From Candidatus Poribacteria bacterium (GTDB lineage Bacteria > Poribacteria > WGA-4E > WGA-3G): DNA of 64,000 bases. The stretch lies in contig OZ243938.1 in NCBI GenBank assembly GCA_965214095.1, positions 5,088,001 to 5,152,000 on the forward strand. The letters are read 5' to 3'. A program made the translations under genes and the position numbers. The notes beneath the pieces were generated by a model that was given only the letters and a program-made list of their open reading frames with translations, did no database searches and was not told where the DNA came from. Below are positions 30,301 to 64,000 of the stretch, in pieces. Each line of letters begins with the position of its first letter. Position 1 is the first letter of the stretch.

Positions 30301-30465
30301 AAGGATATTACCAGGCTTGATTCCGTGATGACGAATTAGGTAAGCAATACGGTGCGTAATGACTTTTGTTTTACCCGTACCAGGACCTGCAATTACAAGT
30401 ATCGGTCCAGTGTTGTGTTTTACTGCTTCTGTCTGTTTTTCATTTAAATCGTGGAGAATGTTCAT
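27316..30465 (-). CDS. UvrD/PcrA-type SF1A helicase with inserted degenerate RecJ-DHH and DEDDh exonuclease domains
   Basis: AGPGTGKT, TFTNKAA, TFH, VDEYHD, DADQSIYSWRG, YR, TLHAAKGTEF, EERRLFYVGMTRA; insert has DLETTG, GHN..YD and HRAMED. Confidence 0.9.
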   Translation of the reverse strand: MNILHDLNEKQTEAVKHNTGPILVIAGPGTGKTKVITHRIAYLIRHHGIKPGNILAITFTNKAAQEMRDRVNNEIGEPHGSNINVSTFHAFCVKVLRSHVHHIGLSENFAIFDQEIQDEILVEVIKELNLHPNDYPVWLLRNAISDAKCKLDYAQNNIEIKQDYIAEIDDPDAEANIVNAFNAYHSKLNEYNAFDFDDLLIRTVILFEQVAEVQQEYHQKISHILVDEYHDVNEVQYQLLRFLTAPPENNLMVVADADQSIYSWRGSNPQFIDDFKTNYSPYTVELDDHYRCSETILRAAEEVIANNPLRQAQHSLISHKDEGRDIFHYTFMTPVEEARTIIRIISKLISERNVSYRDIAVFYRTHRLADVLTEELIRSKIKFQRIRPTNSFDDERLKGILSYLCYIQWRLPRDLEIAINFPEKRVDDLTWVRLKWLAKREKLELEELLRNIEQYPEDVGPLTRKNISSFWEQLATLEDEIEDKKIDKIVNILFEKLDMIRSPYRNKELAAIENKSDLSNLGLAQDVLYSVLDRGEQIQITASYGIDEYCSAYIISQTLQSYLDQNVEVQYLPKNETSDGDSEQLLNRNAVNILIGDFGELGEKGIETRSILIGTTISEQSDVIQLGSGKIRCIAALKLCQRLLSRFETPNMSDMVIYDLETTGVDIRRANIVEIAAKRLNVIGNEVEKFSRLVKPPGGYIPPSVTKVHGISSEDVKDAPSIEMVLPKFYSFIQDRILIGHNVAQYDNPILERGLQDCLDQNLTNPYYDTLVTARRLFPRQRCGIESLAEKFGIEHKTLHRAMEDVEVNRQIFKELIRIDLKKREVQSLTDLLPFVGLGILDKTDISVKNDKNITEERAFLNAAIRVVKEGSQQIHEDLPFESTEEEQVEAYFKELEETDVPIMQEDTAWIETKSKFRTLLLQYLKSDQGNSLLEFLGFQKLLTNYDEIDDDTEQITLMTLHAAKGTEFPVVIIIGMEEGSFPMWKQDTTDAELEEERRLFYVGMTRAQKQLFLSSTIYRYGDRELSTSMFIREVPSDYMVQWSPRGGM

Positions 30466-31741: not shown

Positions 31742-31790
31742 AACTACCAATTAATGATAGAAAATCCGTGTCAAATTCTTGGAAAAACAC

Positions 31791-33713: not shown

Positions 33714-35624
33714 ATGAAAACAACACCACTGTACCTTCTAATAACCTGCCTACTATTTGCCATATTTCTCCCAATTGTTTCTTCACAAGAATATAATACT
33801 TGGGGGTTACCAGAAGGTGCAATTGCGCGACTGGGAAAAAGTGAAATCACTGGAAATGTTGCCTTCTCACCAGATGGTAATCGGTTGGCTGTTGCAAGTT
33901 CAATCGGAATTTGGATTTATGATGTACGTCCCGGTGAAGAAACTGAACTGGAACTTATCACTGGACATACGCTTGATGTTACGACACTTGCTTATTCACC
34001 CGATAGTAGCATACTCGCGAGTGGTAGTAGAGATGGATCAATACGACTGTGGGATGCTCTTAGCGGCAAACAAATTACTTTGTACCAAGGAGAAAGGGAA
34101 GAAGTTATCACACTTGTAATTTCAACAGATGGGAAAATGCTTGCAAGTGGACATCATAATTGGTCTAATAATGAACACCAAGTAAGACTATGGAACTTAC
34201 AAACAAAAGAACTCTTAACAACAATAGATGACCATACAAACTACATCTCATCTTTAGCATTTTCACCTGATGGTAAAACACTTGCTACAGGGAGTAGGGA
34301 CAAGACTGTAAGATTATGGGACACACAAACAGGTGAACACAAATCTACACTTGTAGATCATAAAATTTCTATATCTACGCCTATATCTACGGTAGTGTAT
34401 TCCCCTGATGGGAAGACACTTACGACTGTAAGTCCACTTGATACTGTTTTGCAGTGGGATACAGAAACAGGAACTTATGATACAACATTATTCAAACGTG
34501 TTGGACAGATTCATTCACTTGCATTTTCTCCAGATGGCAGCACGATAGCAATAGAGCACATCAATTATGTGAAGTTGATTAATTCTGAAACAGGAAAACT
34601 AGAAGCTGTCTTCAGAGGACACAAAAAAACAATCGAATCCATTGCTTTTTCTCCTGACGGAAACACACTCGCTACTGCTGATTCTGATAATATCATAATG
34701 CTATGGGATACACAAACTCGAAAGCGCAGAACTACCATCAAAGGACATACTTCAAGGGTTCAATGTTTAACCTATTCACCTGATGGGAAAACTATAGCTT
34801 CAGGCAGCTTTAAAGGACTCGGTTTCCTATGGGATGCTCAGACTGGAAAACATAAAGCAACGCTCATAAGAAGATATAGCCTTGACATAACAGGAATAAC
34901 ATATTCACCTGATGGAAAAACAATTGCTACATGTAGTGGTGTTGGCACTGTTGAACTATGGGAAGAACGAACACGTGCGTTTCAGGTACGTAGCAGAAAA
35001 CCGAAATCAACACTTATTGAGCTGTCCACGGAACTACATTGTATTGCTTATTCACCTGATGGAAAAACAATTGCGATAGGAGACGATAAAGGGGATATAA
35101 GTTTATTGAATGCAGATAAAAGTGAAATAATAACTACTCTCTCAGGACACGTAAGAAGGATCAATTCACTTGCATTCGCACCTGATGGATTTACACTTGC
35201 AAGTGCCAGTAGTGATGGAACTGTCAGAATGTGGGATATACAATCTGAGGGCATCATCGCATCACCAGGAGGAAATAGAAGAGGGTCCTATGCTGTAGCG
35301 TATTCTCCTGATGGAAACTTAGTAGCAAGCGCAGGTGATGACAATAATATCCAACTGTGGGATGTACATAGTCAAACTACAAAGAGAATAATTAGAACAC
35401 CGCAAAACCAAGTTACATGTATTGCTTTCTCTCCGAATGGCGTATTTTTCGCATCCAGCAGTCGTGATGGTAGCATTGAATTATGGAGCACGCAATCAGG
35501 TGAACATATTTCATCATTCAAAGCGAATGATGGGTGGATATCAGCAATTGCATTCTCTCCAAATGGTGATACATTAGCAAGTAGCAGTTCTGACGGCACT
35601 ATTCTCTTGTGGAAACTACGTTGA
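33714..35624 (+). CDS. Secreted WD40-repeat protein
   Basis: Signal peptide; WGLPEGAIARLGK cap; about 13-14 WD repeats. Confidence 0.92.
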   Translation: MKTTPLYLLITCLLFAIFLPIVSSQEYNTWGLPEGAIARLGKSEITGNVAFSPDGNRLAVASSIGIWIYDVRPGEETELELITGHTLDVTTLAYSPDSSILASGSRDGSIRLWDALSGKQITLYQGEREEVITLVISTDGKMLASGHHNWSNNEHQVRLWNLQTKELLTTIDDHTNYISSLAFSPDGKTLATGSRDKTVRLWDTQTGEHKSTLVDHKISISTPISTVVYSPDGKTLTTVSPLDTVLQWDTETGTYDTTLFKRVGQIHSLAFSPDGSTIAIEHINYVKLINSETGKLEAVFRGHKKTIESIAFSPDGNTLATADSDNIIMLWDTQTRKRRTTIKGHTSRVQCLTYSPDGKTIASGSFKGLGFLWDAQTGKHKATLIRRYSLDITGITYSPDGKTIATCSGVGTVELWEERTRAFQVRSRKPKSTLIELSTELHCIAYSPDGKTIAIGDDKGDISLLNADKSEIITTLSGHVRRINSLAFAPDGFTLASASSDGTVRMWDIQSEGIIASPGGNRRGSYAVAYSPDGNLVASAGDDNNIQLWDVHSQTTKRIIRTPQNQVTCIAFSPNGVFFASSSRDGSIELWSTQSGEHISSFKANDGWISAIAFSPNGDTLASSSSDGTILLWKLR

Positions 35625-49702: not shown

Positions 49703-50817
49703 AACGCACCTTCTATAATTTCATCACGACAGAACAACGTGGTTTCCTTCCAAACCTATTCCGCATATTCCTAATGCCGTTGTGTGGTCTCTACAGTCTC
49801 ATCGCCATGATACGAAATTACTGCTACAATGTAGGTATCTTTAAGCAGCAGAAACTTCCGTGCGTTGTCATTAGTATTGGGAATATAGTTGTGGGAGGAA
49901 CAGGAAAAACACCAACTGTCGCCGCAATTGCAAAGATGCTGCAAAATAACGAAACAAAAGTCGCAATACTACTCCGGGGCTACAAACGCAAGAGCGACAA
50001 CGAAATAACAATAGTATCGGATGGTAAGAACTTGTTATGTTCAAGAGAAGAAAGCGGTGATGAAGCGAACATGCTGGCACACCAACTCTCTGAAATTCCA
50101 ATCATCGTTGGAAAACAACGATACCTTATAGGTGAAGCAGCCATTAGTAAATTCAACAGTCAAGTACTAATCCTTGACGATGGATATCAACACCGGAGAT
50201 TAGCACGAGACCTTGACATTCTCATAATTGATGCAACGCAACCCTACGGTACTGGTTCACTCCTACCTATAGGAACATTGAGAGAACCCAAATCATCCAT
50301 AAAACGTGCAGACATCATTCTCCTGACACGGACAGATGTAAAGGGTATAAACATTGAACAACTGAAGACAGAACTCAACCAATTAGCACCGAATACACCT
50401 ATCTTAGAAAGTATCCACAAACCAACATCGTTGTCCCAACTAAATCAAACAGACGATAACTCCACGATGCCTCTGAATTATCTCTCAGGGAAACGACTAC
50501 TTGCTGTGAGTGGAATCGGAAACCCAAATGCATTCGCTAAAACACTTGAAAAACATCATCCTGACAAAGTTGAGTTGTTAGCCTTTCCAGATCACCATGT
50601 CTATTCCGAATCCGATATACAACAGATTCAACGGAAGTTCAAACAGGTTAATGCAGAATGCATCATAACCACCCAAAAAGATGAACATAAATTCGCAGAT
50701 CTCAACACAGACTTGCCGATATTTGTATTAGCGATAGATTTAGTCATCACAGAAGGTAAGAAAGTCCTCTTAGATAAATTGCTAATTTATCAAAAAGCCG
50801 AAACCATTTCTCAATAA
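49699..50817 (+). CDS. lpxK: Tetraacyldisaccharide 4'-kinase
   Basis: SIGNIVVGGTGKTP, LRGY, GDE, LDDGYQH, GIGNP, FPDHH; ATGA overlap with lpxB. Confidence 0.96.
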   Translation: MKRTFYNFITTEQRGFLPNLFRIFLMPLCGLYSLIAMIRNYCYNVGIFKQQKLPCVVISIGNIVVGGTGKTPTVAAIAKMLQNNETKVAILLRGYKRKSDNEITIVSDGKNLLCSREESGDEANMLAHQLSEIPIIVGKQRYLIGEAAISKFNSQVLILDDGYQHRRLARDLDILIIDATQPYGTGSLLPIGTLREPKSSIKRADIILLTRTDVKGINIEQLKTELNQLAPNTPILESIHKPTSLSQLNQTDDNSTMPLNYLSGKRLLAVSGIGNPNAFAKTLEKHHPDKVELLAFPDHHVYSESDIQQIQRKFKQVNAECIITTQKDEHKFADLNTDLPIFVLAIDLVITEGKKVLLDKLLIYQKAETISQ

Positions 50818-50819
50818 TA

Positions 50820-50933
50820 ATACCATTTCTAATAGAAAACGCCGCATTTTTGTAGCACAAACTGCCAGTTTGTGCAGTCCTTCAAGAGATTCCTAACAAA
50901 TTTTAATGGGACAAACATTTATAGAAATGGTAT
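50820..50933. mobile_element. 114-bp MITE (family A) with GTAG REP
   Basis: Near-identical to 9443-9556; sits immediately after the lpxK stop. Confidence 0.8.
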
Positions 50934-51042
50934 AACTTCACTATAAGAAACAGACCTTTTGTAAATGAACACTCCAGTAGTCGCGCAATTCATTGCGCCT
51001 CTTACATTCATTTATGGGATTTACTTGTCAGAATTGGCATAA

Positions 51043-51948
51043 CTACTCAGGTATTGCAACACCTTCATTTGCTGTCATTTCAGCATATAACTCCTGCAAA
51101 CGTGCTGTCATCGGACCAGGATTCCCCGTGCCAATCTGTCTGCCATCCACTTCCAACACCGGACTTAACTCCCCTACAGTACCTGTAGTGAACATCTCGT
51201 CAGCAGTATATACCTCTGTCAAAGAGACGTTCCGCTCCACCATAGGGATCTCAGCTTGTCGTGCAAGATGGATAACATTACCGCGCGTAATACCCGGCAG
51301 ACAACTATCCGCGTGTGAGGTAATCACTTCCCCACGTTTCACTATAAAGATATTGGTTGCATTCGTTTCAGAGACAAAACCGAATACGTCAAGCATGATC
51401 GCATCGTCTACGCCTGCCACATTCGCTTCAATCTTCGCAAGAATGTTATTAATCAGATTGTTATGATGAATCTTGGAATCGATACACTGTGCAGGATTTC
51501 TCCGAATAGCTGATGTTACCAAACGAACACCAGTACTTGCATATATCGGTGCTTTCCATTCTGCCAATACTATAAGACAAGTACCATACTGATTGACATG
51601 TGGGTTCATGCTTGAGGTAACCTTTTTCCCACGGCTTAACGTCAGACGTATATGTACTTCATCGCGCATGCCATTTGCTTGGAGCGTTTCAAAGATTGCA
51701 GCTTTGATCTCATCACGAGAAGGTATCCCTTCAAACGCCATCGCATGTGCCGAGTCTATCAATCGGTCTAAGTGTGGATCCAAGGCAAAGATCTTTCCTT
51801 TATAGATACGTAAACCTTCCCAAACACCATCTCCTCCTTGTACAAGACTATCAAATACAGATATTTTCGCATCTTCACGCGGTAGCAATTCACCACCAAC
51901 ATGTATCAATATATTTTCATTACGCGCATCAGGCAATTGTGGTTGCAT
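51043..51948 (-). CDS. Class IV aminotransferase (branched-chain amino acid aminotransferase-like)
   Basis: GDGVWEGLR, HLDRL, PLP lysine in SKIHH, E.NATN, LPGITR, TGT.GE. Confidence 0.9.
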   Translation of the reverse strand: MQPQLPDARNENILIHVGGELLPREDAKISVFDSLVQGGDGVWEGLRIYKGKIFALDPHLDRLIDSAHAMAFEGIPSRDEIKAAIFETLQANGMRDEVHIRLTLSRGKKVTSSMNPHVNQYGTCLIVLAEWKAPIYASTGVRLVTSAIRRNPAQCIDSKIHHNNLINNILAKIEANVAGVDDAIMLDVFGFVSETNATNIFIVKRGEVITSHADSCLPGITRGNVIHLARQAEIPMVERNVSLTEVYTADEMFTTGTVGELSPVLEVDGRQIGTGNPGPMTARLQELYAEMTANEGVAIPE

Positions 51949-52050
51949 TCATTCTCCTCTTTCCATTAGTTTTATTTTATTCAATCAATTTCTCAATACA
52001 TATATAATACCAAAACACAGATGAAATGGCAATTAACTTCCATAACAGAA

Positions 52051-53982
52051 TCATATCCAACTATATACCGCAGACCGTAAAACCAGACTCAATAGAGGCC
52101 AGAAACACCCCATCAACGCTTCACCTAATACCAATCCTATGAAAAAGGGTATTGCACGACGATACGCTTTTATGCCTCCATTCCGTAAGATAATCCATTT
52201 CGCTACCATTGCAATCAGCAGGGGAAACCAGATAATATCTGTTGTGCCAGGAGCAACACCAATAACATATCCCGCAGGATGCAGCGGACACCAAACAAAA
52301 CGAGAACGTAGAAATATAATACCTAAATTTGACATGAATGTTAACCCAAGCACTGTTGTTGCTAACCAGTCCATCGGTTTCGGATTGACTAACCACGAAG
52401 AGAGGAAATTATAGGTATCTGCACCACCCGCATGAATCTGCTCTGAGCCTGCTGCAACTCCCTCTCTATATATCGTATACGGATAGAGTATCAAACTTGA
52501 TAAGATACCGACAAGGCTGGCTATGACTAACACCGTGAACATCGTTCGGTTACGCACGCCGGTCCTTTCACCAAGTTTGAACGATTCCAACTGATCAGGC
52601 ATCGGATGCGTACGGAATGACGCATAACTTGCACCACTTAGCCAATTCAATAAGGATAGCATTGTCAGATTACCTGCTCGCAATCTACGCGTGCCAAGCA
52701 GTGAAATCATCATATATTGCGGTGTTAGGTATCCGATTGCATGTATCGGTGGACCAAGTTCTGCACGCATACGCGTCAGTCCAACAACAATCATCAGATA
52801 TATAACTATGAAAACAGAAAATGCCCATAACGACATACCCCCTCGAACACATAAGACAGCAAGTAGAAGAAGGGATAAACCGAGTGTAATAACAGTACTA
52901 CGAGGTGATATTGCTTCATTTTTTGAAGCGGAACGATCATGACGAATTACCTGTGAGAATACGAGAGCAAAATGCTGCCTACCATGCCAACAAGCAATAG
53001 CAAGCAGTGCCAGCAACGCACCTGCTCCCTGCTCACCTAAAAACGGATATCCCGGTACTTTCGACACACCTGTTGAGCTGCCAAATATAAGCTGCACCTT
53101 CTTCATCAAATAAAAAAATGTGCATGAAAATGCTAAATCCAATGGCAGTATAAAGGAAAACCCTATCAGATACGGATGAAAACGGAGCGGTGTATTACCA
53201 ATCGCATTCCACGGTTTCTGCGTAAAATAGATATTCAGGTTATACTTCTTCACCGGTATCTCAGGAAGTACAGGATAGAAGTATTGAAGTCCGTTCAACA
53301 GATTTATCCCAAATGCTATACCGAAACCGATCCAGAGCAGACGGTTCCTAAATATACGACGGTTTGTCGTTATCTCAAGTGGGATCTGAATGATCGGATA
53401 CGCGAGTTTTTCGTTCTCTATCCACTGCTTGCGTATCAACGATGTCAAGCAGAGGAATATCAGCATCAACAGAAATATAACTGCTGTCCAAGAAAGTATC
53501 GGAACAATCCAATGTTGCACATAGCCTTCAGTGAAAAAGTTGACATTTCCTTCATAGAAATCGTTGACAGTCTTCGGGTCTTTGACAACAAGCCATTCTG
53601 GCAAATGGTGAAACAGGAGTGCCTCCCAATCATTTTCAGCAGTGGCAAAACGAAACGCGTATGGAATCAATCCCATAAGACGTGGCATACAATCATGACC
53701 TGAAAAAGCACTACCGACTGCAAGCATGCTGTAAACAACGATCAAGTCCCGTTGTGATAGTGCAGCCGTCGGTGCGAAACTCCGTATCCACATGTTCAGC
53801 ATCGTGATTACAAATATCCCGAACATAACATTGACCGACATCGCTACGGTTGTCAAATGTGCTGTGTGCCATATCATTTCTACATAGGCTATCCAGTAAC
53901 TGTTGCCAATTATCAGAACAGTACCTATCAAGACCGCGCGTTTCGTGATTCTTGAGGTGGGATGTAAGTTAGTTTGATGCAT
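52051..53982 (-). CDS. DUF6785/DUF6784-type (OPT-like) polytopic membrane protein
   Basis: Many TM; RKQWIENEKLAYPI, TRMRAELG, PLHPAGY, PFFIGLVLGE; start uncertain (ATG 53982). Confidence 0.75.
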   Translation of the reverse strand: MHQTNLHPTSRITKRAVLIGTVLIIGNSYWIAYVEMIWHTAHLTTVAMSVNVMFGIFVITMLNMWIRSFAPTAALSQRDLIVVYSMLAVGSAFSGHDCMPRLMGLIPYAFRFATAENDWEALLFHHLPEWLVVKDPKTVNDFYEGNVNFFTEGYVQHWIVPILSWTAVIFLLMLIFLCLTSLIRKQWIENEKLAYPIIQIPLEITTNRRIFRNRLLWIGFGIAFGINLLNGLQYFYPVLPEIPVKKYNLNIYFTQKPWNAIGNTPLRFHPYLIGFSFILPLDLAFSCTFFYLMKKVQLIFGSSTGVSKVPGYPFLGEQGAGALLALLAIACWHGRQHFALVFSQVIRHDRSASKNEAISPRSTVITLGLSLLLLAVLCVRGGMSLWAFSVFIVIYLMIVVGLTRMRAELGPPIHAIGYLTPQYMMISLLGTRRLRAGNLTMLSLLNWLSGASYASFRTHPMPDQLESFKLGERTGVRNRTMFTVLVIASLVGILSSLILYPYTIYREGVAAGSEQIHAGGADTYNFLSSWLVNPKPMDWLATTVLGLTFMSNLGIIFLRSRFVWCPLHPAGYVIGVAPGTTDIIWFPLLIAMVAKWIILRNGGIKAYRRAIPFFIGLVLGEALMGCFWPLLSLVLRSAVYSWI

Positions 53983-54066
53983 GCTTTTAACGGGGTGAGA
54001 TAGGTTACTGTGTCGTAAAACTTGAAGGTAATATATCAAATTTTATGGATATATTTTCTATAATAT

Positions 54067-54095
54067 GTTATACTAAACAATCAGAAGTCTGTCAA
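54067..54095 (-). promoter_or_regulatory. Sigma70 promoter
   Basis: TTGACA-17-TATAAC on the minus strand. Confidence 0.65.
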
Positions 54096-54297
54096 GGTGA
54101 AATTCAGAACGTGATGCTTTAGTTATTACTTATACGAAGCGGTTCCAATAGGATTAAACCCGATCTTATGGTTTTTACATTATGGACACCTGACAATCGA
54201 TTTCAACGTTGTGAAGTACAATAATATATTTCAATATAACATTCTTTCAAAGAACTATTTCAATGACTAAATATTGTCATATACAGGAGTGACCAAT

Positions 54298-55419
54298 ATG
54301 CAATTGACTTTTCAAAAAGACGAACTTTTACACACACTTCAGATGGTGCAGGGAATTGCTGGGGGACGAAATACCTTGCCAATATTGTCAAATGTACTCA
54401 TACGCGCACAAAACGGGAACATAGAATGTGCTGCGACTGATTTAGAAGTTGGCATTAGAATAAAAGTTTTGGGGGACATCAAAGAAGAAGGTGCTATTAC
54501 CGTCTCTGCAAAGAAATTATCTGACATCGTACGTGAATTACCTGATGCGCCGATTGAACTGGTAACGACAGCAAATGACAGAGTCGAAATCACATGTGGT
54601 GAAGGTGTCTACAAAATAATTGGACTCTCCGATGAAGAATTTCCTGAACTCCCATCTGCAAATGGGGTAGGTATTCCTATTGATGGTGAAACTTTATGCT
54701 CTGTTATTCACAAAACGCAGTTTGCTGCATCAACGGATGAAGTGCGATATACATTGAACGGTTTGTATTTCAGTCTTATGGATGACAAAACTGAAGTGGT
54801 AGCAACGGATGGCACAAGACAGCTCGCTTTAACTTATTGTCCTTCCTTAAAAAGTTCGGATGAAGTCGCAGGATTTATCGTTCCATTGAAGACAATTAGA
54901 GAGGTTGCGAGAATTTTCGCGGAATCAGCTGAAGTTAAGATTTCTCACCAAAAAAACCAGCTCCTCTTTTCCGATGAAAACACGACACTAACGACACGTC
55001 TAGTTGAAGGTGAATATCCACCATATCAGAAACTGTTTCGTGATGCTTCTGATGGACGGACAGTTATCTCAAAAGAGGCTATCTTACGCGCCGCAAAACG
55101 AGTCTCTTTGCTCTCAGACCCAAAGAACTTCCTAATCTGCTTAGAAATCGATACAGAACAGATTCGGATTTCAGCGAAAACACCAGAACTCGGTGAGGCA
55201 CATGAGACAGTCTCTGTGGAATCTGGGACTGGCAGTGTACGCATCGGTTTGGATGCACGTGTGCTTTTAGATGTATTGACGCATATTGAAACTGATTCAC
55301 TCATTTTTGAGTTCACTGGAGAGTTTATACCATTGATCGTGAAACCTACAGGAGATATTGAGCATACTTGTTTTATCATGCCTATGCGTTTAGAACCTGC
55401 TTCACCATTGGAATCTTAA
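54298..55419 (+). CDS. dnaN: DNA polymerase III beta sliding clamp, paralog 1
   Basis: TLPILSN, ATDLE, ELP, EEFP, LNG, VATDG, RLVEGEYP, IMPMRL; ATG after AGGAG. Confidence 0.93.
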   Translation: MQLTFQKDELLHTLQMVQGIAGGRNTLPILSNVLIRAQNGNIECAATDLEVGIRIKVLGDIKEEGAITVSAKKLSDIVRELPDAPIELVTTANDRVEITCGEGVYKIIGLSDEEFPELPSANGVGIPIDGETLCSVIHKTQFAASTDEVRYTLNGLYFSLMDDKTEVVATDGTRQLALTYCPSLKSSDEVAGFIVPLKTIREVARIFAESAEVKISHQKNQLLFSDENTTLTTRLVEGEYPPYQKLFRDASDGRTVISKEAILRAAKRVSLLSDPKNFLICLEIDTEQIRISAKTPELGEAHETVSVESGTGSVRIGLDARVLLDVLTHIETDSLIFEFTGEFIPLIVKPTGDIEHTCFIMPMRLEPASPLES

Positions 55420-55516
55420 TTCCTGCTTATATTTACCGATTGTACAGTATACTTCCTGTATGCAGTTCGCATAAAGCATTCATTATAGCAATTGATTAAT
55501 AATAGGAGATTTCTAT

Positions 55517-56626
55517 ATGGAACTTGCCTTTGAAAAAGATGAACTCCTTGATAACCTACAAACAATCCAAGGCGTAACAAGTGGACGCAACACTTTGCCG
55601 ATACTTGCAAACATTCTCATTCGCGCACAAGATGAGGGAATAGAATGTGCCGCGACCGACTTGGAAGTTGGCATAAAAGTAAAAGTAGACGGGACGATAG
55701 CAGATACAGGTGAAATTACCGTCTCTGCAAAAAAACTCGTTGACCTCGTGCGGGAATTACCTGATAAACCAATTAAACTCGTTACGACTGCAAATGATAG
55801 AATTGAACTCACTTGTGGCGATGGCACATATAAGATAATCGGACTTTCAAGTGAGGAATTTCCACCAGTACCGTCTACTAATGGAGAAGGATTAACTATT
55901 GATGGTGAAATGCTAAACTCCGTTATCCGAAAAACTATTTTTGCAGCATCTACTGAAGAGGTACAATTCCTTCTGAACGGTCTCTATTTCAACCTACTTG
56001 AAGATAGAACAGAGGTGGTCGCAACCGATAGAAACTATCTGGCATTAGCACATTGTGCCCCACTGCAGACATCTGAAGACGTTGAAGGGTTTATAGTGCC
56101 TTTGAAAGCAGTTAAAGAGATTGAACGCACGTTTGCTGATTCAGAAAGTGTGAGGATCTCTCTCCAGAATAGCCAACTGCTGTTCTCTGATGAAAATGCG
56201 ACGCTGATGACACGATTAGTAGATGGGAGATATCCTGAATACCAAACGATTATCCCGGAGTCTACAGAAAGCCGTGCTGTTGTATCAAAGGACTCATTTC
56301 TGCGCGCATCGCGCCGCGTGTCCCTTCTTTCCAATCCAAAGAACAATGCAATATGTTTAGAGATAGATAGTGAAAGAATTCATCTATCTGCAAATACTCC
56401 TGAACTTGGTGAAGCACACGAGACGATTGCAGTGGAATCCAGTACTGGAAGTGTGCGGATAGGACTGGATGCTCGGATGTTAACAGATGTGTTGTCGCAT
56501 ATTGAAACGACATCTCTCGTTTTAGAGTTCTCAGATGATGCCTCACCCTTCTTAGTCAAACCTGAAGGAGATGACGGACATCTATGTATCATTTCACCGA
56601 TGCGATTAGATGCAATCCACCAATAG
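55517..56626 (+). CDS. dnaN: DNA polymerase III beta sliding clamp, paralog 2
   Basis: TLPILAN, ATDLE, EEFP, LNG, VATD, RLVDGRYP, ISPMRL; AGGAG RBS. Confidence 0.92.
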   Translation: MELAFEKDELLDNLQTIQGVTSGRNTLPILANILIRAQDEGIECAATDLEVGIKVKVDGTIADTGEITVSAKKLVDLVRELPDKPIKLVTTANDRIELTCGDGTYKIIGLSSEEFPPVPSTNGEGLTIDGEMLNSVIRKTIFAASTEEVQFLLNGLYFNLLEDRTEVVATDRNYLALAHCAPLQTSEDVEGFIVPLKAVKEIERTFADSESVRISLQNSQLLFSDENATLMTRLVDGRYPEYQTIIPESTESRAVVSKDSFLRASRRVSLLSNPKNNAICLEIDSERIHLSANTPELGEAHETIAVESSTGSVRIGLDARMLTDVLSHIETTSLVLEFSDDASPFLVKPEGDDGHLCIISPMRLDAIHQ

Positions 56627-56649
56627 AATATGCTGATGTTTACATCATT

Positions 56650-56821
56650 CATAGACGTCAATTTAGCGTCCTTCCAAGTACCGGTAGGTTCGGTTTCCTA
56701 ACCGAACCGGCTTTGTGCCAAATACCTTCATAGAGGTTCTCGCGTAGGATCCGGTTCGGTTAGGAAACCGAACCTACCGTCCTGGGGAAAACGCCTAATT
56801 TACACTAAATTGACGCTTATG
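56650..56821. mobile_element. 172-bp MITE with CAT..ATG ends, about 20-bp flanking direct repeat and internal REP doublet
   Basis: TIR catagacgtcaatttag / ctaaattgacgcttatg; DR atgctgatgtttacatcatt at 56630 and 56822; inverted REPs at 56684-56777. Confidence 0.8.
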
Positions 56822-56840
56822 ATGCTGATGTTTACATCAT

Positions 56841-56943
56841 TATAGTGAATTATAGATATAAGTTGACACTTTCGACCCACGGTAGGCGAGGTTTCCTAAC
56901 CTCGCCGATGCTGAGTGCTCAAGTAATTTCAAAATCTACTATA
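56841..56943. mobile_element. 103-bp MITE (family B) with GTAG REP
   Basis: Near-identical to 38208-38310. Confidence 0.8.
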
Positions 56944-57085
56944 ATATCAAATCTACTTTAGCTGCCTGATGTAATACAGTCAAATGTCCACATCCATCCC
57001 GCATATACAAAAAGAGTTTGAATCTGGTAAATTTGTTGTTAAGTTTGTCTTATACAAATTCTATTTGTTCTTATCTCATTTTTTC

Positions 57086-57165
57086 GTAGGTCGGGTAGAG
57101 GCACGAAACCCGACATGATGACTACAATCAAGACGTGTCGGGTTTCGTGCCTCTACCCGACCTAC
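57086..57165. repeat. Perfect REPIN: inverted 30-bp GTAG REP doublet
   Basis: gtaggtcgggtagaggcacgaaacccgaca, 20-nt spacer, then exact reverse complement; single copy at 45824; family A TIR tagaaatggtat ends at 57198. Confidence 0.85.
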
Positions 57166-57198
57166 AGAAGAATGAGGTATTATTAATTAGAAATGGTA

Positions 57199-59922
57199 TT
57201 ATTTATTGTCTATCTCCCAAAGAAACACAGAACCATTATTACAACCGCTAACAAGGGTTTTTCCATCAGGACTAAACGCGATACTATCAACCCGCCCTAT
57301 ATGACCCATCAGTGTTTTCTTGTGTTCGCTGGTGTGTGTATCCCATAATTGAATCGTGCCATCTCCACACCCACTTGCGAAGGTTTTTCCATCCGGACTG
57401 AACGCTAAACACATCAAAAATGTATCTCCGCTAATTGTAATTTTGATTTTCCATGTGTCTATATCCCATAGATGGATAATCCCATCATTGCCTCCACTTG
57501 CGAGGATTTTTCCATCCGGACTGAACGCTAAACCTTCCACCCAATCATTATGTTCGGTAAGTACGATTTTATTTTCACCAGTTGCAACATCCCAGAGACA
57601 AATAGTTTCATCATTACTTCCGCTTGCAAGGATTTTACCATCCGGACTGAACGCGATACTATTGATCAACTTCTTATGTCCAATAAGTGTCCTTTTATGT
57701 TCGCCAGTGTGTGCATCCCAGAGGTGGATAGTATCGCCATCTTCACTTGCAAGTATATTTCCATCCGAACTGAGTGCTATATGCTTAACAAAACTGGTAT
57801 GTCCAGTAAGTATCAATTTGTGTTCGCCAGTGTGTGCATCCCAGATGTGGATGTCATCGTCAGTCCCACAAAAAAGAGTTTTTCCATCAGGGCTGAACAC
57901 TATACTGTAAGCCGATTCTATCTGTCCATTTTTAGGCTCGTTAAGTGTTCTTATGGGTTGCCTTGTATCCGCATCCCATAGACGAATAATTCCACTGGCA
58001 TCCCCACTTGCGATATAGTACCCATTCGGATTGAACGCAACACTGTGTACCTCCTGCGAATGTCCAGTAAATATTTTTTTCGCGTTGCCGGTGTGTACAT
58101 CCCAAAACCGTATGGTGCCATCGCCACCTCCACTTGCAAGTGTTTGTCCACCCGGACTGAACGCTAACCCACCGCGCCCTACATTTCGCGGGTGCTCGGT
58201 GATTATTTCCCTGTGTGTGCCAGAGTGTACATCCCACAGACAGATTGTTTCATCGCCATAGGACGTAGTAGCAATTGTTTTTCCATCAGGACTAAACGCT
58301 AAGTGGATAACGTGATCCTTATGCTTAGAGAGAATCATCTTGAGTTCGCCTGTGTTTAAGTCGTAGAGATAGACAGTGCCACTTACACTACCAACAGCGA
58401 CTATTATTCCATCTGGACTTAACGCAGCACTAATAGCAGAGCAATCAGGGTGCATAGCAAAAGTTTTCTTGTGTTTACCCGTGATCGAATTCCAAAGACT
58501 GATTTTGTCTCCCCTACTCATACTGACAAGAGTCTGTCCGTCTGGCGTGAATGATAAATCAGAACCATTATACGGATCATTCGAGAGTGTATACTTTTCC
58601 TCTCCAGTGATGGCATCCCATAATCGGATAGTGCCTTGCCGATTATTACTCGCAAGTATTTTGCCATTCGGGCTGAATGTTAAGCATGTGATATACTCTG
58701 TATTACGTCCAATGAGCGTTTCTTGCGTCCCTGTGATTCTATCATACAGGGTAATATTACCATCGGCATTTCCACTTGCTAAGATGCGTCCATCTGGGCT
58801 AAAAGCAAGGTGGAAGGCATGACTCGTATCAGCTGTGATTAGACTTGCCTCTTGATGTACTGTCACATCGTAAAGCCAAATACCGATGCCACTCGCAACA
58901 GCCAGCAACTTACCGTCAGGAGAATATTTTATATCGGCTATATACCCTTTACTGAGGCGCACTTTAGCATCTTCAGGCAGGTTCCATTGCATAGCATCTT
59001 GTGTTAGGTTGTTTTCCACGGTTTTTGTTCCTTTTGTTAAACCGTTGTTACTGTTTTTGCTGAGGTTAGTACCACCAACCCGGTTTTTCAATTTGGGTTT
59101 TGATTGAAGATTCAAAATAATAGGCGCGTCAACTATTTCAATTGTGGGTTCTGATTTTGCGTCAACGCTATACGGGCTCTGAAAATTAGCGGTGAATTGC
59201 TTACTTGCTCCCATCAACAAAATAACCAAAATAGCAGATGCGCCTAAAGCTGCAAACGGTAGCAACGGTTTACTTCCTAATGGAGATGTTTGTTTGATTG
59301 TGTCAATACGTCGTATGATGTTTTCAGTTAGATCTGGACTTAATGGGATGCTGCCGAGGGTTTCCCGAATTATGGACTCTTCGTTCTGTAAACGTTCTCG
59401 TGCCCGTTTAAGTCGACTTTTAACAGTGTTTGAAGATACACCTAAAAACTTGCTAATCTCTTCACAACTCATTTCACCGAGGTAGTGCAGGACCATCACC
59501 GTGCGTTCACTTTCTGGAAGTTTTTCCATGAGCTTCTGCACGATTTTACGTCTGTGTTCAACGGCTGCGTCCTCACGCTGTTCACAGACATAGTCCGCAT
59601 AAGCAGTTTTTTCAAGTGTCTTTTCACTGGTGGAATCCAAGGATTTCATGTCCATCCGCTTCTTTCTGAACCATGCTTTGCATTGTCGATTGGCGATGAC
59701 GTAAAGCCAACCAGCAAACTGACCCGGATTTTTCAACGAGGCGAGTCTTTGGTATGCCAGTAGGAAAGTATCCTGTGTAATTTCTTCAGCGATATGGAAA
59801 TCACCGATTTTCCGCCAGGCAAGCGCGTGAACGCTTTTTTGATATTTCTCAACTAACGCACTGAAAGCAGTTTCGTCACCTGACAATACTTCTTGAATCA
59901 GTTCAAAATCATCTCTTTCCAT
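57199..59922 (-). CDS. ECF sigma factor fused to TM helix and WD40 propeller (copy 1)
   Basis: Sigma2 (AEEITQDTFL..F.GWLY), sigma4 (EEISKFLG..TVKSRL.RAR), TM, WNLPEDAK cap, WD repeats. Confidence 0.93.
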   Translation of the reverse strand: MERDDFELIQEVLSGDETAFSALVEKYQKSVHALAWRKIGDFHIAEEITQDTFLLAYQRLASLKNPGQFAGWLYVIANRQCKAWFRKKRMDMKSLDSTSEKTLEKTAYADYVCEQREDAAVEHRRKIVQKLMEKLPESERTVMVLHYLGEMSCEEISKFLGVSSNTVKSRLKRARERLQNEESIIRETLGSIPLSPDLTENIIRRIDTIKQTSPLGSKPLLPFAALGASAILVILLMGASKQFTANFQSPYSVDAKSEPTIEIVDAPIILNLQSKPKLKNRVGGTNLSKNSNNGLTKGTKTVENNLTQDAMQWNLPEDAKVRLSKGYIADIKYSPDGKLLAVASGIGIWLYDVTVHQEASLITADTSHAFHLAFSPDGRILASGNADGNITLYDRITGTQETLIGRNTEYITCLTFSPNGKILASNNRQGTIRLWDAITGEEKYTLSNDPYNGSDLSFTPDGQTLVSMSRGDKISLWNSITGKHKKTFAMHPDCSAISAALSPDGIIVAVGSVSGTVYLYDLNTGELKMILSKHKDHVIHLAFSPDGKTIATTSYGDETICLWDVHSGTHREIITEHPRNVGRGGLAFSPGGQTLASGGGDGTIRFWDVHTGNAKKIFTGHSQEVHSVAFNPNGYYIASGDASGIIRLWDADTRQPIRTLNEPKNGQIESAYSIVFSPDGKTLFCGTDDDIHIWDAHTGEHKLILTGHTSFVKHIALSSDGNILASEDGDTIHLWDAHTGEHKRTLIGHKKLINSIAFSPDGKILASGSNDETICLWDVATGENKIVLTEHNDWVEGLAFSPDGKILASGGNDGIIHLWDIDTWKIKITISGDTFLMCLAFSPDGKTFASGCGDGTIQLWDTHTSEHKKTLMGHIGRVDSIAFSPDGKTLVSGCNNGSVFLWEIDNK

Positions 59923-59960
59923 CAGAGACCTCCATAATCAATTTTGGCTTACAATTATCG

Positions 59961-59990
59961 GTGACGCGTTTTTTCGGTGGATAGGTTGCA
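59961..59990 (-). promoter_or_regulatory. Putative ECF autoregulatory promoter
   Basis: TGCAACC-N15-CGCGTCAC; same boxes and spacing at 62893-62922. Confidence 0.7.
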
Positions 59991-60090
59991 GAATTGTCAT
60001 AATTGAAACAAAACCTGTCTTTTTTGTGTGTAGACGAAACACGGACAATGAATTGTGCAGCTACCAACGTAGGTATGATGAATTGGGACA

Positions 60091-62832
60091 TTACGGATTT
60101 ATTTCCCAGAGCAGCACAGTGCCATCATCACTACCACTAACGAGGGTTTTGCCATCAGGACTGAACGCGATGCTTCTAACCCAAGCTGTATGTCCAGTCA
60201 GCGTTTTCTTGTGTTCGCCAGTGTGTGCATCCCATAAGTTGATGATACCGTCTACACCTCCACTCACAAGAGATTTTCCATCAGGACTGAATGCCAAACT
60301 GAACACCCAATGTGAATGTCCAGTGAGTGTCATCTTACTTTTGCCTGTCCCTATATCCCATAGGTGAATGATCTTGTCACCACCTCCACTAGCAAGGGTT
60401 TTGCCATCAGGACTGAATGCAACGGTCTTAACACCTTCAAAACTGTATCGACTATTCTTATCTTCTAATTTCTCGGTATGTCCAGTGAGTATCATCTTGG
60501 TATCGCCAGTGTCAACATCCCATAGTCGTATCGTAGCGTCCTCACTACCACTGGCGAGGGTTTTGCTATCCGGACTAAAGGCAACGCTATAGACTCTGTG
60601 CTTATGTCCGTTGAGCGTTATTTTATGTTCACCAGTATGCATATTCCAAAGTCGTATAGTCATATCCTCGCTACCACTCGCGAGTGTCCTTCCATCGGGG
60701 CTGAGTGCTATGCTATGGATACCCCACGTATGTCCGGTGAGTAGCATTTTGTGTTCTCCGGTGTGTGGATCCCAAAGACGGATGCCATCGTCAGTCCCAC
60801 AAGCGAGAGTATTTCCATCAGGACTGAAGACCATACTTGATGCTGCGTCATTAAACTCTTTGAATGTTCTCATTTGGTGTCCAGTCTTCGCATCCCACAA
60901 ACGAATAGTGCCATCGGCATACCCACTTGCAACAATTTGCCTATTGGGGTTGAACGCTACGCTATAAACATAGTCCGAATTTCCAGTGATTGCAGACTTT
61001 TGGTTGCCGGTGTTCATATCCCAGAAACGGATGGTGCCATCTCCACTTCCACTACTTGCGAGTGTTTTCCCATCAGGACTGAATGCTAAACCCCAAATAT
61101 CTCCCGTGTGTTCAGTGAGAATAATCCTCTGTTCACCAGTGTGCACATCCCAGATACGTACTGTTTCGTCTATATATGATGAACTTGCGAGTGTTTTCCC
61201 ATCCGGACTAAAGGCTATGCTTTGAACGTCCACAGAATGTCCTATGAGTTTTCGCTTGAGTTCACCTGTGTTTAAATCTGAAAGGTAGATAATACCATCT
61301 CTACTGCCAATAGCAACTGTTTTGCCATCCGGACTGAACGCTGCGCAAAATACACTATCAGTATTTTCCACTTTGAATGTTTTCTTATGTTTACCAGTGA
61401 TTGCATCCGATATACAGACTTCGCTACCCCCAGTCACACTAACAATTGTCTTGCCATCCGGGCTGAATGAAATATAACCGATATTTTCCGGGAGTCCAGT
61501 GAAACTATCCTTATGTTCTCCGGTGATAGTATCCCAAAGTTGGACAGTATCACCGTCTCCACTTGCTACTATTTTTCCATCAGGACTGAATACAATGGTT
61601 GTGTGCGAGTTCGTATGACCTATAAGTGTTTTTTGTGCACCTGTGCTTCTATCCCACAGAATAATCGTCCCATTCCAGTCTCCACTCACAAAAGTGTGTC
61701 CATCCGGACTAAATGTGAGGCGATTGACTAAACCCGTATGGTCTGTGAGCAGGGCGACCTCTTGATGTGTTGTTGCGTCGTAGAACCAAATTCCGACACC
61801 ACTTGCAACAGCAAGAATTGTCCCATCAGGAGAATACTGTATTTCACTTATCATACCTTTACCAAGGCGGGCTTTAGCATCTTCAGGTAGGTTCCATTGC
61901 ATAGGGTCTTGTGCTAAGTTGTTTTTCACTGTTTTTGTTCCTTCTGTTAGACCGTTGTTACTGTTTTTGCTGAGGTTAGTACCACCAACCCGGTTTTTCA
62001 ATTCAGGTTTTGATTGAAGATTCAAAATAATAGGCGCATCAACAATTTCAATAGCAATTTCTGATTTTGAATCTACACTATACGGCTTCTGAAAATTTGT
62101 GATGAGTTGTTTGCTCGCGCCCATCAACAAAATCACCAAAATAAAGGATGTACCTAAAGCTGCAAACGGTAGCAACGGTTTACCTCCTGATGGAGATGTT
62201 TGTTTTATGCTGTCAATACCTTGCATGATGTTTTCGGTTAGATTTGGAGGTAATGAAACACTGCCGAGTGTTTCCCGAATTATGGACTCTTCGTTCTGTA
62301 AACGTTCTCGTCCCCGTTTAAGTCGACTTTTAACAGTGTTCGAAGATACACCTAAAAACTTGCTAATCTCTTCACAACTCATTTCACCGAGATAGTGAAG
62401 GACCATCACCGTGCGTTCGCTTTCTGGAAGTTTTTCCATGAGCTTCTGCACGATTTTACGTCTGTGTTCAACGGCTGCGTCCTCACGCTGGTCACAGACA
62501 TAGTCCGCATAAGCAGTTTTTTCAAGTGTCTTTTCACTGGTGGAATCCAAGGAGTCCATGTCCATCCGCTTCTTTCTGAACCATGCTTTGCATTGTCGAT
62601 TGGTGATGACGTAAAGCCAACCAGCAAACTGACCCGGATTTTTCAACGAGGCGAGTCTTTGGTATGCCAGTAGGAAAGTATCCTGTGTAATTTCTTCAGC
62701 GATATGGAAATCACCGATTTTCCGCCAGGCAAGCGCGTGAACGCTTTTTTGATATTTTTCAACTAACGCACTGAAAGCAGTTTCGTCACCTGACAATACT
62801 TCTTGAATCAGTTCAAAATCATCTCTTTCCAT
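60091..62832 (-). CDS. ECF sigma factor fused to TM helix and WD40 propeller (copy 2)
   Basis: Same architecture; sigma domain almost identical to copy 1. Confidence 0.93.
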   Translation of the reverse strand: MERDDFELIQEVLSGDETAFSALVEKYQKSVHALAWRKIGDFHIAEEITQDTFLLAYQRLASLKNPGQFAGWLYVITNRQCKAWFRKKRMDMDSLDSTSEKTLEKTAYADYVCDQREDAAVEHRRKIVQKLMEKLPESERTVMVLHYLGEMSCEEISKFLGVSSNTVKSRLKRGRERLQNEESIIRETLGSVSLPPNLTENIMQGIDSIKQTSPSGGKPLLPFAALGTSFILVILLMGASKQLITNFQKPYSVDSKSEIAIEIVDAPIILNLQSKPELKNRVGGTNLSKNSNNGLTEGTKTVKNNLAQDPMQWNLPEDAKARLGKGMISEIQYSPDGTILAVASGVGIWFYDATTHQEVALLTDHTGLVNRLTFSPDGHTFVSGDWNGTIILWDRSTGAQKTLIGHTNSHTTIVFSPDGKIVASGDGDTVQLWDTITGEHKDSFTGLPENIGYISFSPDGKTIVSVTGGSEVCISDAITGKHKKTFKVENTDSVFCAAFSPDGKTVAIGSRDGIIYLSDLNTGELKRKLIGHSVDVQSIAFSPDGKTLASSSYIDETVRIWDVHTGEQRIILTEHTGDIWGLAFSPDGKTLASSGSGDGTIRFWDMNTGNQKSAITGNSDYVYSVAFNPNRQIVASGYADGTIRLWDAKTGHQMRTFKEFNDAASSMVFSPDGNTLACGTDDGIRLWDPHTGEHKMLLTGHTWGIHSIALSPDGRTLASGSEDMTIRLWNMHTGEHKITLNGHKHRVYSVAFSPDSKTLASGSEDATIRLWDVDTGDTKMILTGHTEKLEDKNSRYSFEGVKTVAFSPDGKTLASGGGDKIIHLWDIGTGKSKMTLTGHSHWVFSLAFSPDGKSLVSGGVDGIINLWDAHTGEHKKTLTGHTAWVRSIAFSPDGKTLVSGSDDGTVLLWEINP

Positions 62833-62852
62833 CAGAAACCTCCATAATCAAT

Positions 62853-62883
62853 AATTGCATAGGAATTGCATAGGAATTGCATA
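62853..62883. repeat. 11-bp tandem repeat in the leader of ECF copy 2
   Basis: aattgcatagg aattgcatagg aattgcata. Confidence 0.8.
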
Positions 62884-62892
62884 CAATCTATA

Positions 62893-62922
62893 GTGACGCG
62901 ATTTTGTAAGGGATGGGTTGCA
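62893..62922 (-). promoter_or_regulatory. Putative ECF autoregulatory promoter
   Basis: TGCAACC-N15-CGCGTCAC. Confidence 0.7.
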
Positions 62923-62956
62923 AGAATGTCAAAGTTGAAAGAAAAAATCTAAATTT

Positions 62957-63094
62957 TATAGTAAAAATCATAATTATTTACACACTACGGTAGGTTCGGT
63001 TTCCTAACCGAACCGGTGTTTGTTCAGTGTTATAGATGCGGTTAGGAAACCGCATCTACCGTGGAGTGTGCACGTATTTTTACATTTCACTATA
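62957..63094. mobile_element. 138-bp MITE (family C) with inverted REP doublet
   Basis: Ends tatagtaaaa/tttcactata; near copy of 40207-40343. Confidence 0.8.
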
Positions 63095-63284
63095 AAGAAA
63101 ATACCCAATTAACGAGATAAATCCCGATAATTGGGTAATATCAAGAAGGAATAGCAGGTTTGCAGCAACTTTTATAAACAGACAATTTCGTCCAATAAAA
63201 GTTAAGGTATATCTTTCTATGACGTTTCGACAGAACTAAAGATACCTGTGAAACATTTGCTATAAGAATCGCATCTCTGTGAGG

Positions 63285-64000
63285 TTAACTAACTTCTGTG
63301 CCAGACATTTGCTCTAAAGCCAACAGCAATGCTTGCGTTCCTAAACGTCCATGTCCTTGTGCTTGCACAGCAGTGTAAAGTTGATGCACCAAGGCAAGTC
63401 CCGGTAGACTCAGGTTCATTTTTCTTGCTTCATCCAGTGCAATGCTCATATCCTTGATGAAATGTTCCACAAAGAAACCAGGGTCAAAGTCGCGCTTGAG
63501 AACCCGTGGGGCTAAGTTATCCAACGACCAACATGCAGCTGCTCCACCGCTGATTGAAGATAGCATCGTCTCCAAATCCAAACCCGCTTTATGACCATAA
63601 ATCAATCCTTCACACACACCGATCATCGTGCCAGAAATGGTAATCTGATTGCACATTTTGGTATGTTGACCAGCACCAGCACCGCCTTGATGAACGATGT
63701 TCTTACCCATAGCGGAAAATAGCGGCATAATTGCTTCTACCGCTGAGTCATCACCCCCGACCATGATAGAGAGTCGTGCTTCTCGCGCACCAACATCACC
63801 ACCTGAAACAGGGGCATCTACAGATGATACATTCTGTTCACTTGCAGCAGCATATATCTCCTGTGCAAGAGAGGGTTCAGTAGTCGTCATATCAACGATA
63901 ATACTACCTGATTTTGCGCCATTCAGAATACCGTTTTCACCGAGATAAACCTCTCTCACATCGGGTGGAAACCCAACGATTGTAAAGATGACATCTGAAA
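63285..64000 (-). CDS. 3-hydroxyisobutyrate dehydrogenase/2-hydroxy-3-oxopropionate reductase family (5' end outside the window)
   Basis: [30 protein letters not shown]...HFIKDM; frame open to the window edge. Confidence 0.92.

Follow-up and report, generated by a model that had tools for sequence, protein, structure and literature searches.

Why would a bacterium keep two different sliding-clamp genes side by side, and what distinguishes the two products? The question is raised by a stretch of 64,000 nucleotides from a sponge-associated Candidatus Poribacteria bacterium (assembly GCA_965214095.1, contig OZ243938.1, positions 5,088,001 to 5,152,000; hereafter the window), in which two full-length dnaN genes for the beta sliding clamp stand in tandem. 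A first-pass annotation, made from the sequence of the window, had described two intact dnaN genes 97 bp apart, about two-thirds identical, lying outside the dnaA locus and differing specifically in the pocket that receives clamp-binding motifs. The observation of tandem, diverged clamps is confirmed by the present analysis. We found that the native clamp gene was duplicated in place, that the duplication is old, that both copies are under constraint and that their differences are focused on the docking cleft. Two copies kept for so long and differing mainly in the docking pocket suggest clamps specialised for different partners, and the explanation that we consider somewhat probable is that the partner-binding cleft was sub-functionalised after the in-place duplication of the native clamp gene. 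Poribacteria are uncultivated.

The two genes and their spacer are arranged as follows.

54298..55419, forward strand: dnaN copy 1 (group A), 373 aa from ATG, with a near-canonical cleft and a one-residue loop insertion.
55420..55516, forward strand: spacer between copy 1 and copy 2, 97 bp, carrying the Shine-Dalgarno sequence of copy 2.
55517..56626, forward strand: dnaN copy 2 (group B), 369 aa, with a remodelled cleft and PMRL kept.

The open reading frame (ORF) of copy 1, which ends at 55419, could begin at TTG 54274 or ATG 54298; the ATG is favoured because an AGGAG at 54285-54289 lies 8 nt 5' of it, and the ATG of copy 2 is preceded at the same distance by an AGGAG at 55504-55508. BLASTP aligned the two products with 238/366 identities (65%), 81% positives, one gap and an E value of 2e-179, in agreement with the estimate of two-thirds. 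PF00712, PF02767 and PF02768, the three clamp domains, are all matched end to end, or nearly so, by both copies, and the DnaN equivalog model TIGR00663 (cut-off, 137.65 bits) gives 283.1 bits for copy 1 and 274.5 bits for copy 2; thus, ORFs, domains and equivalog scores bear out two full-length, intact dnaN genes 97 bp apart. A search of the PDB with the sequence of copy 1 retrieved 55 distinct clamp sequences, with a best E value of 3e-51 and one of 3.8e-40 for the E. coli clamp. AlphaFold2 models of copy 1 and copy 2 reached predicted local distance difference test (pLDDT) scores of 88.6 and 87.8, respectively, with a predicted template modelling (pTM) score of 0.83 each. In a Foldseek search with the copy 2 model, the top structure was the B. 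subtilis clamp 4tr6_A (TM 0.92, E 1.3e-36), and solved beta clamps align with the model at TM 0.88-0.93.

The cleft of the beta clamp is described as one of the most conserved protein-protein interfaces of bacteria and as a broad-spectrum drug target in excerpts of two reports (PMC3290774, PMC11703123). Excerpts of the latter assign M362 the role of a gate separating two subsites of the cleft, place R152 and H175 at the edge of subsite I and attribute backbone hydrogen bonding with bound peptides to G174 and R365 (PMC11703123). All pocket motifs quoted by the first-pass annotation are present in the translations, and its E. coli numbering (R152, D173-L177, M362) is correct against K-12 dnaN. 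Copy 1 carries VRYTLNG, ATDGTRQLA (one residue more than the E. coli ATDGHRLA) and FIMPMRL, so that it keeps R152, Y153, M362 and PMRL. Copy 2 carries VQFLLNG, ATDRNYLA and IISPMRL, which in E. coli numbering gives Q152, F153, R174, N175, Y176 and S362, with PMRL kept. A conserved docking cleft is typical of the DnaN family, though outside its curated definition. Among 123 diverse DnaN representatives taken from a 50%-identity library, 108 have R152 and 1 has Q there; at position 174, G is seen in 108 and R in 2; position 175 is H, R or K in 112 and N in 3; 116 have R176 and none has Y; and 116 have M362 and 1 has S. Each of the five copy 2 states (Q152, R174, N175, Y176 and S362) thus occurs in only 0-3 of the 123, and F153 is rare as well. 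When the 120 best clusters of a large protein collection were sorted by cleft signature, 36 were canonical GKR/M, 24 were MRW/M and 9 were Q[FY]-RNY-S, along with others.

To place the pair in its phylum, a collection of species-representative genomes was scanned with an alignment of the two copies; 168 stretches matched, 89 of them encoded relatives, and the best 80 were kept, resolving into 66 loci (numbered L001 and onward) or 67 with the window. The records of the 66 loci are titled Poribacteria in 64 cases and "uncultured bacterium" in 2. Among proteins with an assigned name, the closest belong to Candidatus Poribacteria. We called 109 dnaN ORFs in the 67 loci. A single dnaN is present in 32 loci, two in tandem in 28 (the window included) and three in 7, the arrays being always on the same strand with spacers of 28-638 bp. 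Because so many loci hold two or three genes, the pair is not strain specific.

Clustering of three genes per side of dnaN, with the clusters named by Pfam, defined two genomic contexts, for the first of which the following gene served as synteny anchor.

52051..54039, reverse strand: DUF6785/DUF6784 membrane-protein gene, divergent from dnaN (Pfam E 4.3e-152).

Context I, that of the window, consists of the divergent DUF6785/DUF6784 gene and one to three dnaN genes, downstream of which come genes for a 3-hydroxyisobutyrate-dehydrogenase-like protein and an LPG-synthase-like membrane protein, and then nadC. In addition, the window has an insertion of two large WD40-repeat genes after the clamps. 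The DUF6785 cluster has 32 members among the compared flanking genes, and its gene sits 1-3 genes upstream of dnaN in context-I loci, single-copy loci and arrays alike. Eight complete chromosomes with context-I arrays gave one locus each in the scan. In context II, a halogenase-like flavoprotein, an NMT1-type binding protein and an M16 peptidase precede one or two dnaN genes, which are followed by TPR, DsbD and PglZ genes.

The arrangement dnaA-dnaN-recF-gyrB, as in E. coli, is not found at the window locus. No dnaA, recF or gyrB was detected in the 48 window ORFs scanned with Pfam (8 unscanned ORFs of at least 150 aa overlap longer ORFs), as the first-pass annotation had held, and no DnaA, RecF or GyrB domain occurs in the gene clusters conserved around dnaN in the 66 related loci. 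Its phrase "outside the dnaA locus" is therefore true of position, but the accessory status that it implied did not stand, since single-copy Poribacteria keep their only detected dnaN at this very place. Nine context-I loci have a single-copy dnaN, and the eight genes among them that are full length carry VRYFLNG, ATD-G(K/R)RLA or ATD-SHRLA, and LIMPMRL, which make up a canonical cleft; they keep R152, Y153, G174 (7/8), K, H or R at 175, R176, P242, M362 and PMRL. Because single-copy relatives hold a canonical dnaN at the same site, the window pair represents the native dnaN duplicated in place rather than an accessory gene. Relative to this single-copy clade, copy 1 has gained one loop residue, and copy 2 has R152 and M362 replaced and the loop rebuilt as R-N-Y.

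We then reconstructed the history of the arrays with two trees, a quick one of 131 sequences and a careful one of 70 (LG+C20+F+G4), which agree on the clades stated here. The 55 genes of the 24 context-I arrays (17 doubles, 7 triples) form one clade with support 100/100, sister to the 8 single-copy context-I genes. Window copy 1 belongs to group A (14 sequences, monophyletic at 100/99) and window copy 2 to group B (11 sequences, monophyletic at 100/98); other strongly supported groups are a second first-gene group of 9 sequences, a last-gene group of 14 and the middle gene of the triples with 6. Since groups A and B each form well-supported clades, the duplication is old and, as read from the tree, predates the divergence of many species. 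Within the array clade, the inner branches that order the paralog groups are only 0.015-0.02 long, with supports of 52-90, and a grouping of B with the other last-gene paralogs was not rejected by the approximately unbiased test (p = 0.105). The synonymous distance (dS) between window copies 1 and 2 is 2.4 and thus saturated, which argues against recent homogenisation of the two by gene conversion. Identity to the single-copy clade is 64-67% for copy 1 and 62-67% for copy 2; overall divergence is symmetric, so the asymmetry between the copies is specific to the cleft.

Selection was assessed from the ratio of nonsynonymous to synonymous distances (dN/dS), calculated pairwise by the Nei-Gojobori method for ortholog pairs with 0.05 < dS < 1.5.

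Group A: median 0.075, range 0.042-0.126, 44 pairs.
Group B: median 0.093, range 0.059-0.431, 33 pairs.
Other paralog groups: medians 0.09-0.11.
Single-copy clade: median 0.110.

The group B maximum of 0.431 stems from one pair with a dS of only 0.066. Between the window and L001, dN/dS is 0.057 for copy 1 and 0.098 for copy 2, and between the window and L021, it is 0.073 and 0.072. Both copies are under strong purifying selection and neither evolves neutrally. The first-pass annotation had named neutral evolution of one copy, or a strain-specific pair with ordinary pockets, as outcomes that would undo its proposal; neither held, the former being overturned by the pairwise ratios and the latter by copies that are old, retained and pocket divergent.

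The distribution of differences between groups A and B bears directly on the cleft. Among 177 positions fixed (at least 90%) in both groups, 13 differ between them, and these comprise 5/12 pocket sites versus 8/165 other sites (Fisher p = 5.6e-4; our pocket list has 22 residues, 12 of them usable in this comparison), with 0/64 sites in domain I. For each of 366 E. coli positions, we also counted how many different consensus residues occur over 14 tree-defined orthogroups from both contexts. The highest counts were those of G174 (9 states), R176 (8), M362 (8) and H175 (8), all within the pocket list, for which the chance is 1e-5; conservation within groups at these four is 0.90-0.99. Cleft positions show a mean of 4.05 states compared with 2.27 elsewhere (Mann-Whitney p = 1.2e-4). 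The same cleft positions have diversified in the pairs of context II (AIW+MVK and FVQ+GVS types).

The middle gene of the triple arrays (L004, L005, L006, L015, L016 and L023; for example, L004:11184-12287) has a drastically altered cleft, with T172A, a V-P-M loop, P242L, LVNS replacing LNG and a C terminus reading IIMSLHKPNY instead of PMRL. It scores 235.7 bits with TIGR00663, and its median dN/dS of 0.113 indicates purifying selection.

Upstream of the first dnaN, a further conserved element was identified.

54044..54100, forward strand: conserved promoter-like block and start of the leader, reading TGGATA, 17 nt, TG-n-TATACT and then AAACAATCAGAAGTCTGTCAAGG.

A promoter scan matched 54046..54074, with a TG preceding the -10 element. 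The consensus scan for promoters and terminators gave counts at the level of shuffled sequence (9 versus 9.4 and 3 versus 1.6), and we retained only this site, which is conserved across loci: the block is almost invariant in 7 aligned loci despite saturated synonymous sites. The exact 18-mer TGTTATACTAAAYAATCA, at 54066 in the window, occurs once, upstream of the first dnaN, in 20/66 loci, all of them context-I arrays; it is present with 1 mismatch in arrays L014 and L023, and 3-mismatch variants retaining TGTTATACTAAAT stand upstream of the single-copy genes in L024, L027, L032 and L064. The block may thus be the promoter of the array. When 8 orthologous spacers are aligned, conservation is confined to the ATAGGAG region that precedes the ATG, and the consensus scan found no terminator-like site in the 97-bp spacer. 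Because the genes share a strand, with one conserved block per array, a Shine-Dalgarno sequence per gene and no spacer terminator, we infer that the array is probably co-transcribed, from what would be one ancestral dnaN promoter. The 223-nt leader folds no more stably than its shuffles (z = -0.61), and Rfam matched no family over 50000-64000. A spacer hairpin with an 8-bp stem (CTGCATAC...GTATGCAG) occurs in the closest relatives (L001:11120-11222 and L002:11120-11223); it is imperfect in the window and has no T run after it.

Other arrangements were also seen among the related loci. Two genomes have unlinked dnaN sets, namely, the complete chromosome OX638352.1 (L029 in context I and L050 in context II) and one metagenome-assembled genome (L026 in context I and L048 in context II); in both, the context-I gene has a canonical cleft and the context-II gene is of the AIR/AIW type, so that clamp multiplicity in the phylum arises by more than tandem duplication. 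In L019, two last-gene copies (L019:8458-9558 and L019:10001-11101), 439 bp apart, are near-identical, with terminal branches of 0.015 and 0.0035, which points to a recent further duplication inside the array. ORFs resembling mobile elements are inserted beside four arrays: an IS605 OrfB/TnpB-like gene lies between the conserved promoter block and the first dnaN in L013 (L013:8483-9697) and L014, and an RRXRR-family ORF lies directly upstream of the array in L043 (L043:8942-9967) and L008. Among the clamp homologs, P0121 (576 aa) and P0124 (706 aa) are fusions, with some 208 aa added at the N terminus or some 316 aa at the C terminus, and each is represented by several members on long contigs.

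Taken together, these data would fit a model in which the native Poribacteria dnaN was duplicated in tandem long ago and both copies, probably co-transcribed from one conserved promoter and kept by purifying selection, came to divide the partner-docking cleft between them. Copy 1, with its near-canonical cleft, would probably work with the clamp loader and the replicative polymerase, and copy 2, with its loop rebuilt and its gating methionine replaced, would be expected to favour another set or class of clamp-binding motifs. Clamps, or clamp faces, that differ in partner preference would then be available to the cell. The first-pass claim that the copies differ specifically in the clamp-binding-motif pocket is upheld by the enrichment of differences there, and the functional reading drawn from it is only partly supported.

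Several points weigh against this interpretation. The altered specificity is read from residue identity. The loop of copy 1 aligns ambiguously, two alignments placing the insertion differently. Both the 22-residue pocket list and the interface positions used below go partly beyond the residues named in the papers cited, and with only the 11 cleft residues named there, the A/B enrichment is weaker (3/7, p = 0.009). The cleft loop also varies among context-II single-copy Poribacteria genes (MRW, SRW and AIR types), so a loop change does not strictly need a duplication. Finally, the census ran through two peptide patterns that match 94/109 dnaN ORFs, the other 15 having been picked up only through adjoining a pattern match, and the genome of the window may hold further divergent dnaN genes.

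The alternative that survives best, which we would advance only tentatively, is a regular heterodimeric ring with two different clefts, as the first-pass annotation had also proposed, an asymmetric tool belt in which the cleft of copy 1 would serve the clamp loader and Pol III, and that of copy 2 would hold a dedicated second partner or alter the time for which the ring stays on DNA. We take the head-to-tail interface of the E. coli clamp to comprise positions 73-80, 96-110, 268-280 and 296-306. These segments are almost identical in all paralog groups (K73/K74, R96, Y106, I108, L272, L273, E298, E301 and E304), and hence there is no sequence sign of blocked cross-dimerisation; however, an unchanged interface equally allows two homodimers, and groups A and B do differ next to the interface strand, at positions 275, 279 and 280. 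Co-synthesis of the protomers would be in keeping with the short spacers and with a single promoter-like block for each array, and the middle paralog, which lacks PMRL yet remains under purifying selection, is more easily understood as half of a mixed ring. The existence in Poribacteria of natural mixed beta-clamp rings, assembled from two or three paralogous protomers that have one interface in common and different clefts, is, as judged from these sequences, possible but doubtful. If true, one face could serve the loader and replicase, and the other a dedicated repair or translesion partner or slower unloading, and such rings would be a bacterial counterpart of heteromeric archaeal PCNA. The PCNA of Crenarchaeota is an established heterotrimer of paralogous subunits, each docking its own partners; the likeness is one of function and applies only if Poribacteria do form heterodimers, and the two differ in that PCNA belongs to another clamp family with three two-domain subunits, whereas any Poribacteria heteromer is hypothetical. 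In E. coli, an engineered beta+/betaC ring with one canonical and one disabled cleft is, according to excerpts of the two reports, loaded, drives Pol III normally and is poorly unloaded (PMC2685083), and the single-cleft clamp supports viability (PMC3022782), which makes a natural mixed ring plausible. That ring is a laboratory construct, whereas the second cleft of Poribacteria is remodelled, not deleted, and is maintained by selection.

It is also conceivable, though unlikely, that copy 2, like GriR and MypR, serves as a back-up clamp resistant to an inhibitor of the cleft, for example a toxin, a phage protein or a natural product made by members of the sponge community. As far as excerpts of the relevant report go, a second dnaN is a self-resistance factor against griselimycin and mycoplanecin, valued for its altered response at the peptide-binding cleft, and the genes for GriR and MypR, each the second DnaN of its genome, lie inside nonribosomal peptide synthetase (NRPS) clusters near transposase genes (PMC10817943). 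The Poribacteria changes fall exactly on the residues used by griselimycin, mycoplanecin and other cleft binders, and the hypervariability of the cleft loop between orthogroups is what an arms race could produce. However, the four hot-spot residues have stayed fixed in each orthogroup through long divergence and dN/dS is low, which argues against ongoing diversifying selection. The copy is a tandem duplicate of a housekeeping gene at its native locus, conserved across species, and not part of a gene cluster beside transposases. No NRPS, polyketide synthase (PKS) or other biosynthetic genes, nor domains of a precursor pathway, were found in the 48 window ORFs (64 kb) or in the conserved flanks of related loci, and neither clamp had a PADLOC match. 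The suggestion of the first-pass annotation that the pair protects against clamp-targeting compounds therefore found no contextual support, unlike griR and mypR. As for mere dosage, or decay of one copy with pocket differences due to drift, the symmetric divergence from the single-copy clade would fit, but this is highly improbable and is contradicted by the dN/dS, fixed-difference and orthogroup results, as neither ORF is disrupted and each has a Shine-Dalgarno site, almost every ortholog pair has a dN/dS of 0.04-0.14, 24 context-I loci have kept their arrays and the differences concentrate in otherwise conserved cleft residues.

Second dnaN genes as such are already known, from Bacillus dnaN-2 as well as GriR and MypR. 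B. anthracis dnaN-1 and dnaN-2 differ in function (Yang and Miller 2008, as summarised in excerpts of PMC3290774) and resemble the present case in that one bacterium retains a pair of beta-clamp paralogs whose roles apparently differ. Their "sequence homology" is given there as about 40% (PMC3290774, excerpts), compared with 65% identity in the Poribacteria pair. The Poribacteria genes are in tandem on one strand at the native locus, number up to three, are found in many species and have diverged with a focus on the cleft. We found no description of tandem or multiple dnaN genes in Poribacteria in open-access main text, one paper merely tabulating dnaN. What appears to be new is the occurrence, across a lineage, of tandem arrays two or three clamp genes long that occupy the native locus and show cleft-focused divergence.

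A whole lineage has duplicated its clamp gene in place, up to three times, and diversified a conserved docking interface under constraint. The arrays thus offer a natural experiment on possible ways of dividing up polymerase traffic on the clamp, on whether asymmetric rings are usable by bacteria and on which cleft residues may change in a clamp that still works. They also mean that a dnaN annotation is no guarantee of a canonical cleft.

Elsewhere in the window, a mutL gene (31779-33674, forward strand) encodes a MutL that has the endonuclease motif DQHVAAERVLYE and in which QGLLLP, a ready test peptide for the two clefts, occupies the position of the MutL clamp-binding motif. A gene at 27316-30465 (reverse strand) encodes a UvrD-type helicase with an embedded RNase_T (DnaQ-like) exonuclease domain at residues 655-812, an unusual fusion that may be a clamp client. 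Very large WD40-repeat proteins are encoded downstream of the clamps at 57199-59922 and 60091-62832 (reverse strand) and also at 21753-24002 and 33714-35624; the two downstream genes are insertions relative to the synteny of most related loci, and the N-terminal regions of their products resemble ECF (extracytoplasmic function) sigma factors by eye only. An intergenic family of palindromic repeats occurs downstream of copy 2, including a perfect 29-nt inverted repeat and a 64-nt one, at window positions 56682-56779, 56890-56901 and 57052-57199 and elsewhere; the repeat core GGTTTCCTAACC is found 10 times in the window with at most 1 mismatch, versus 0.2 expected.

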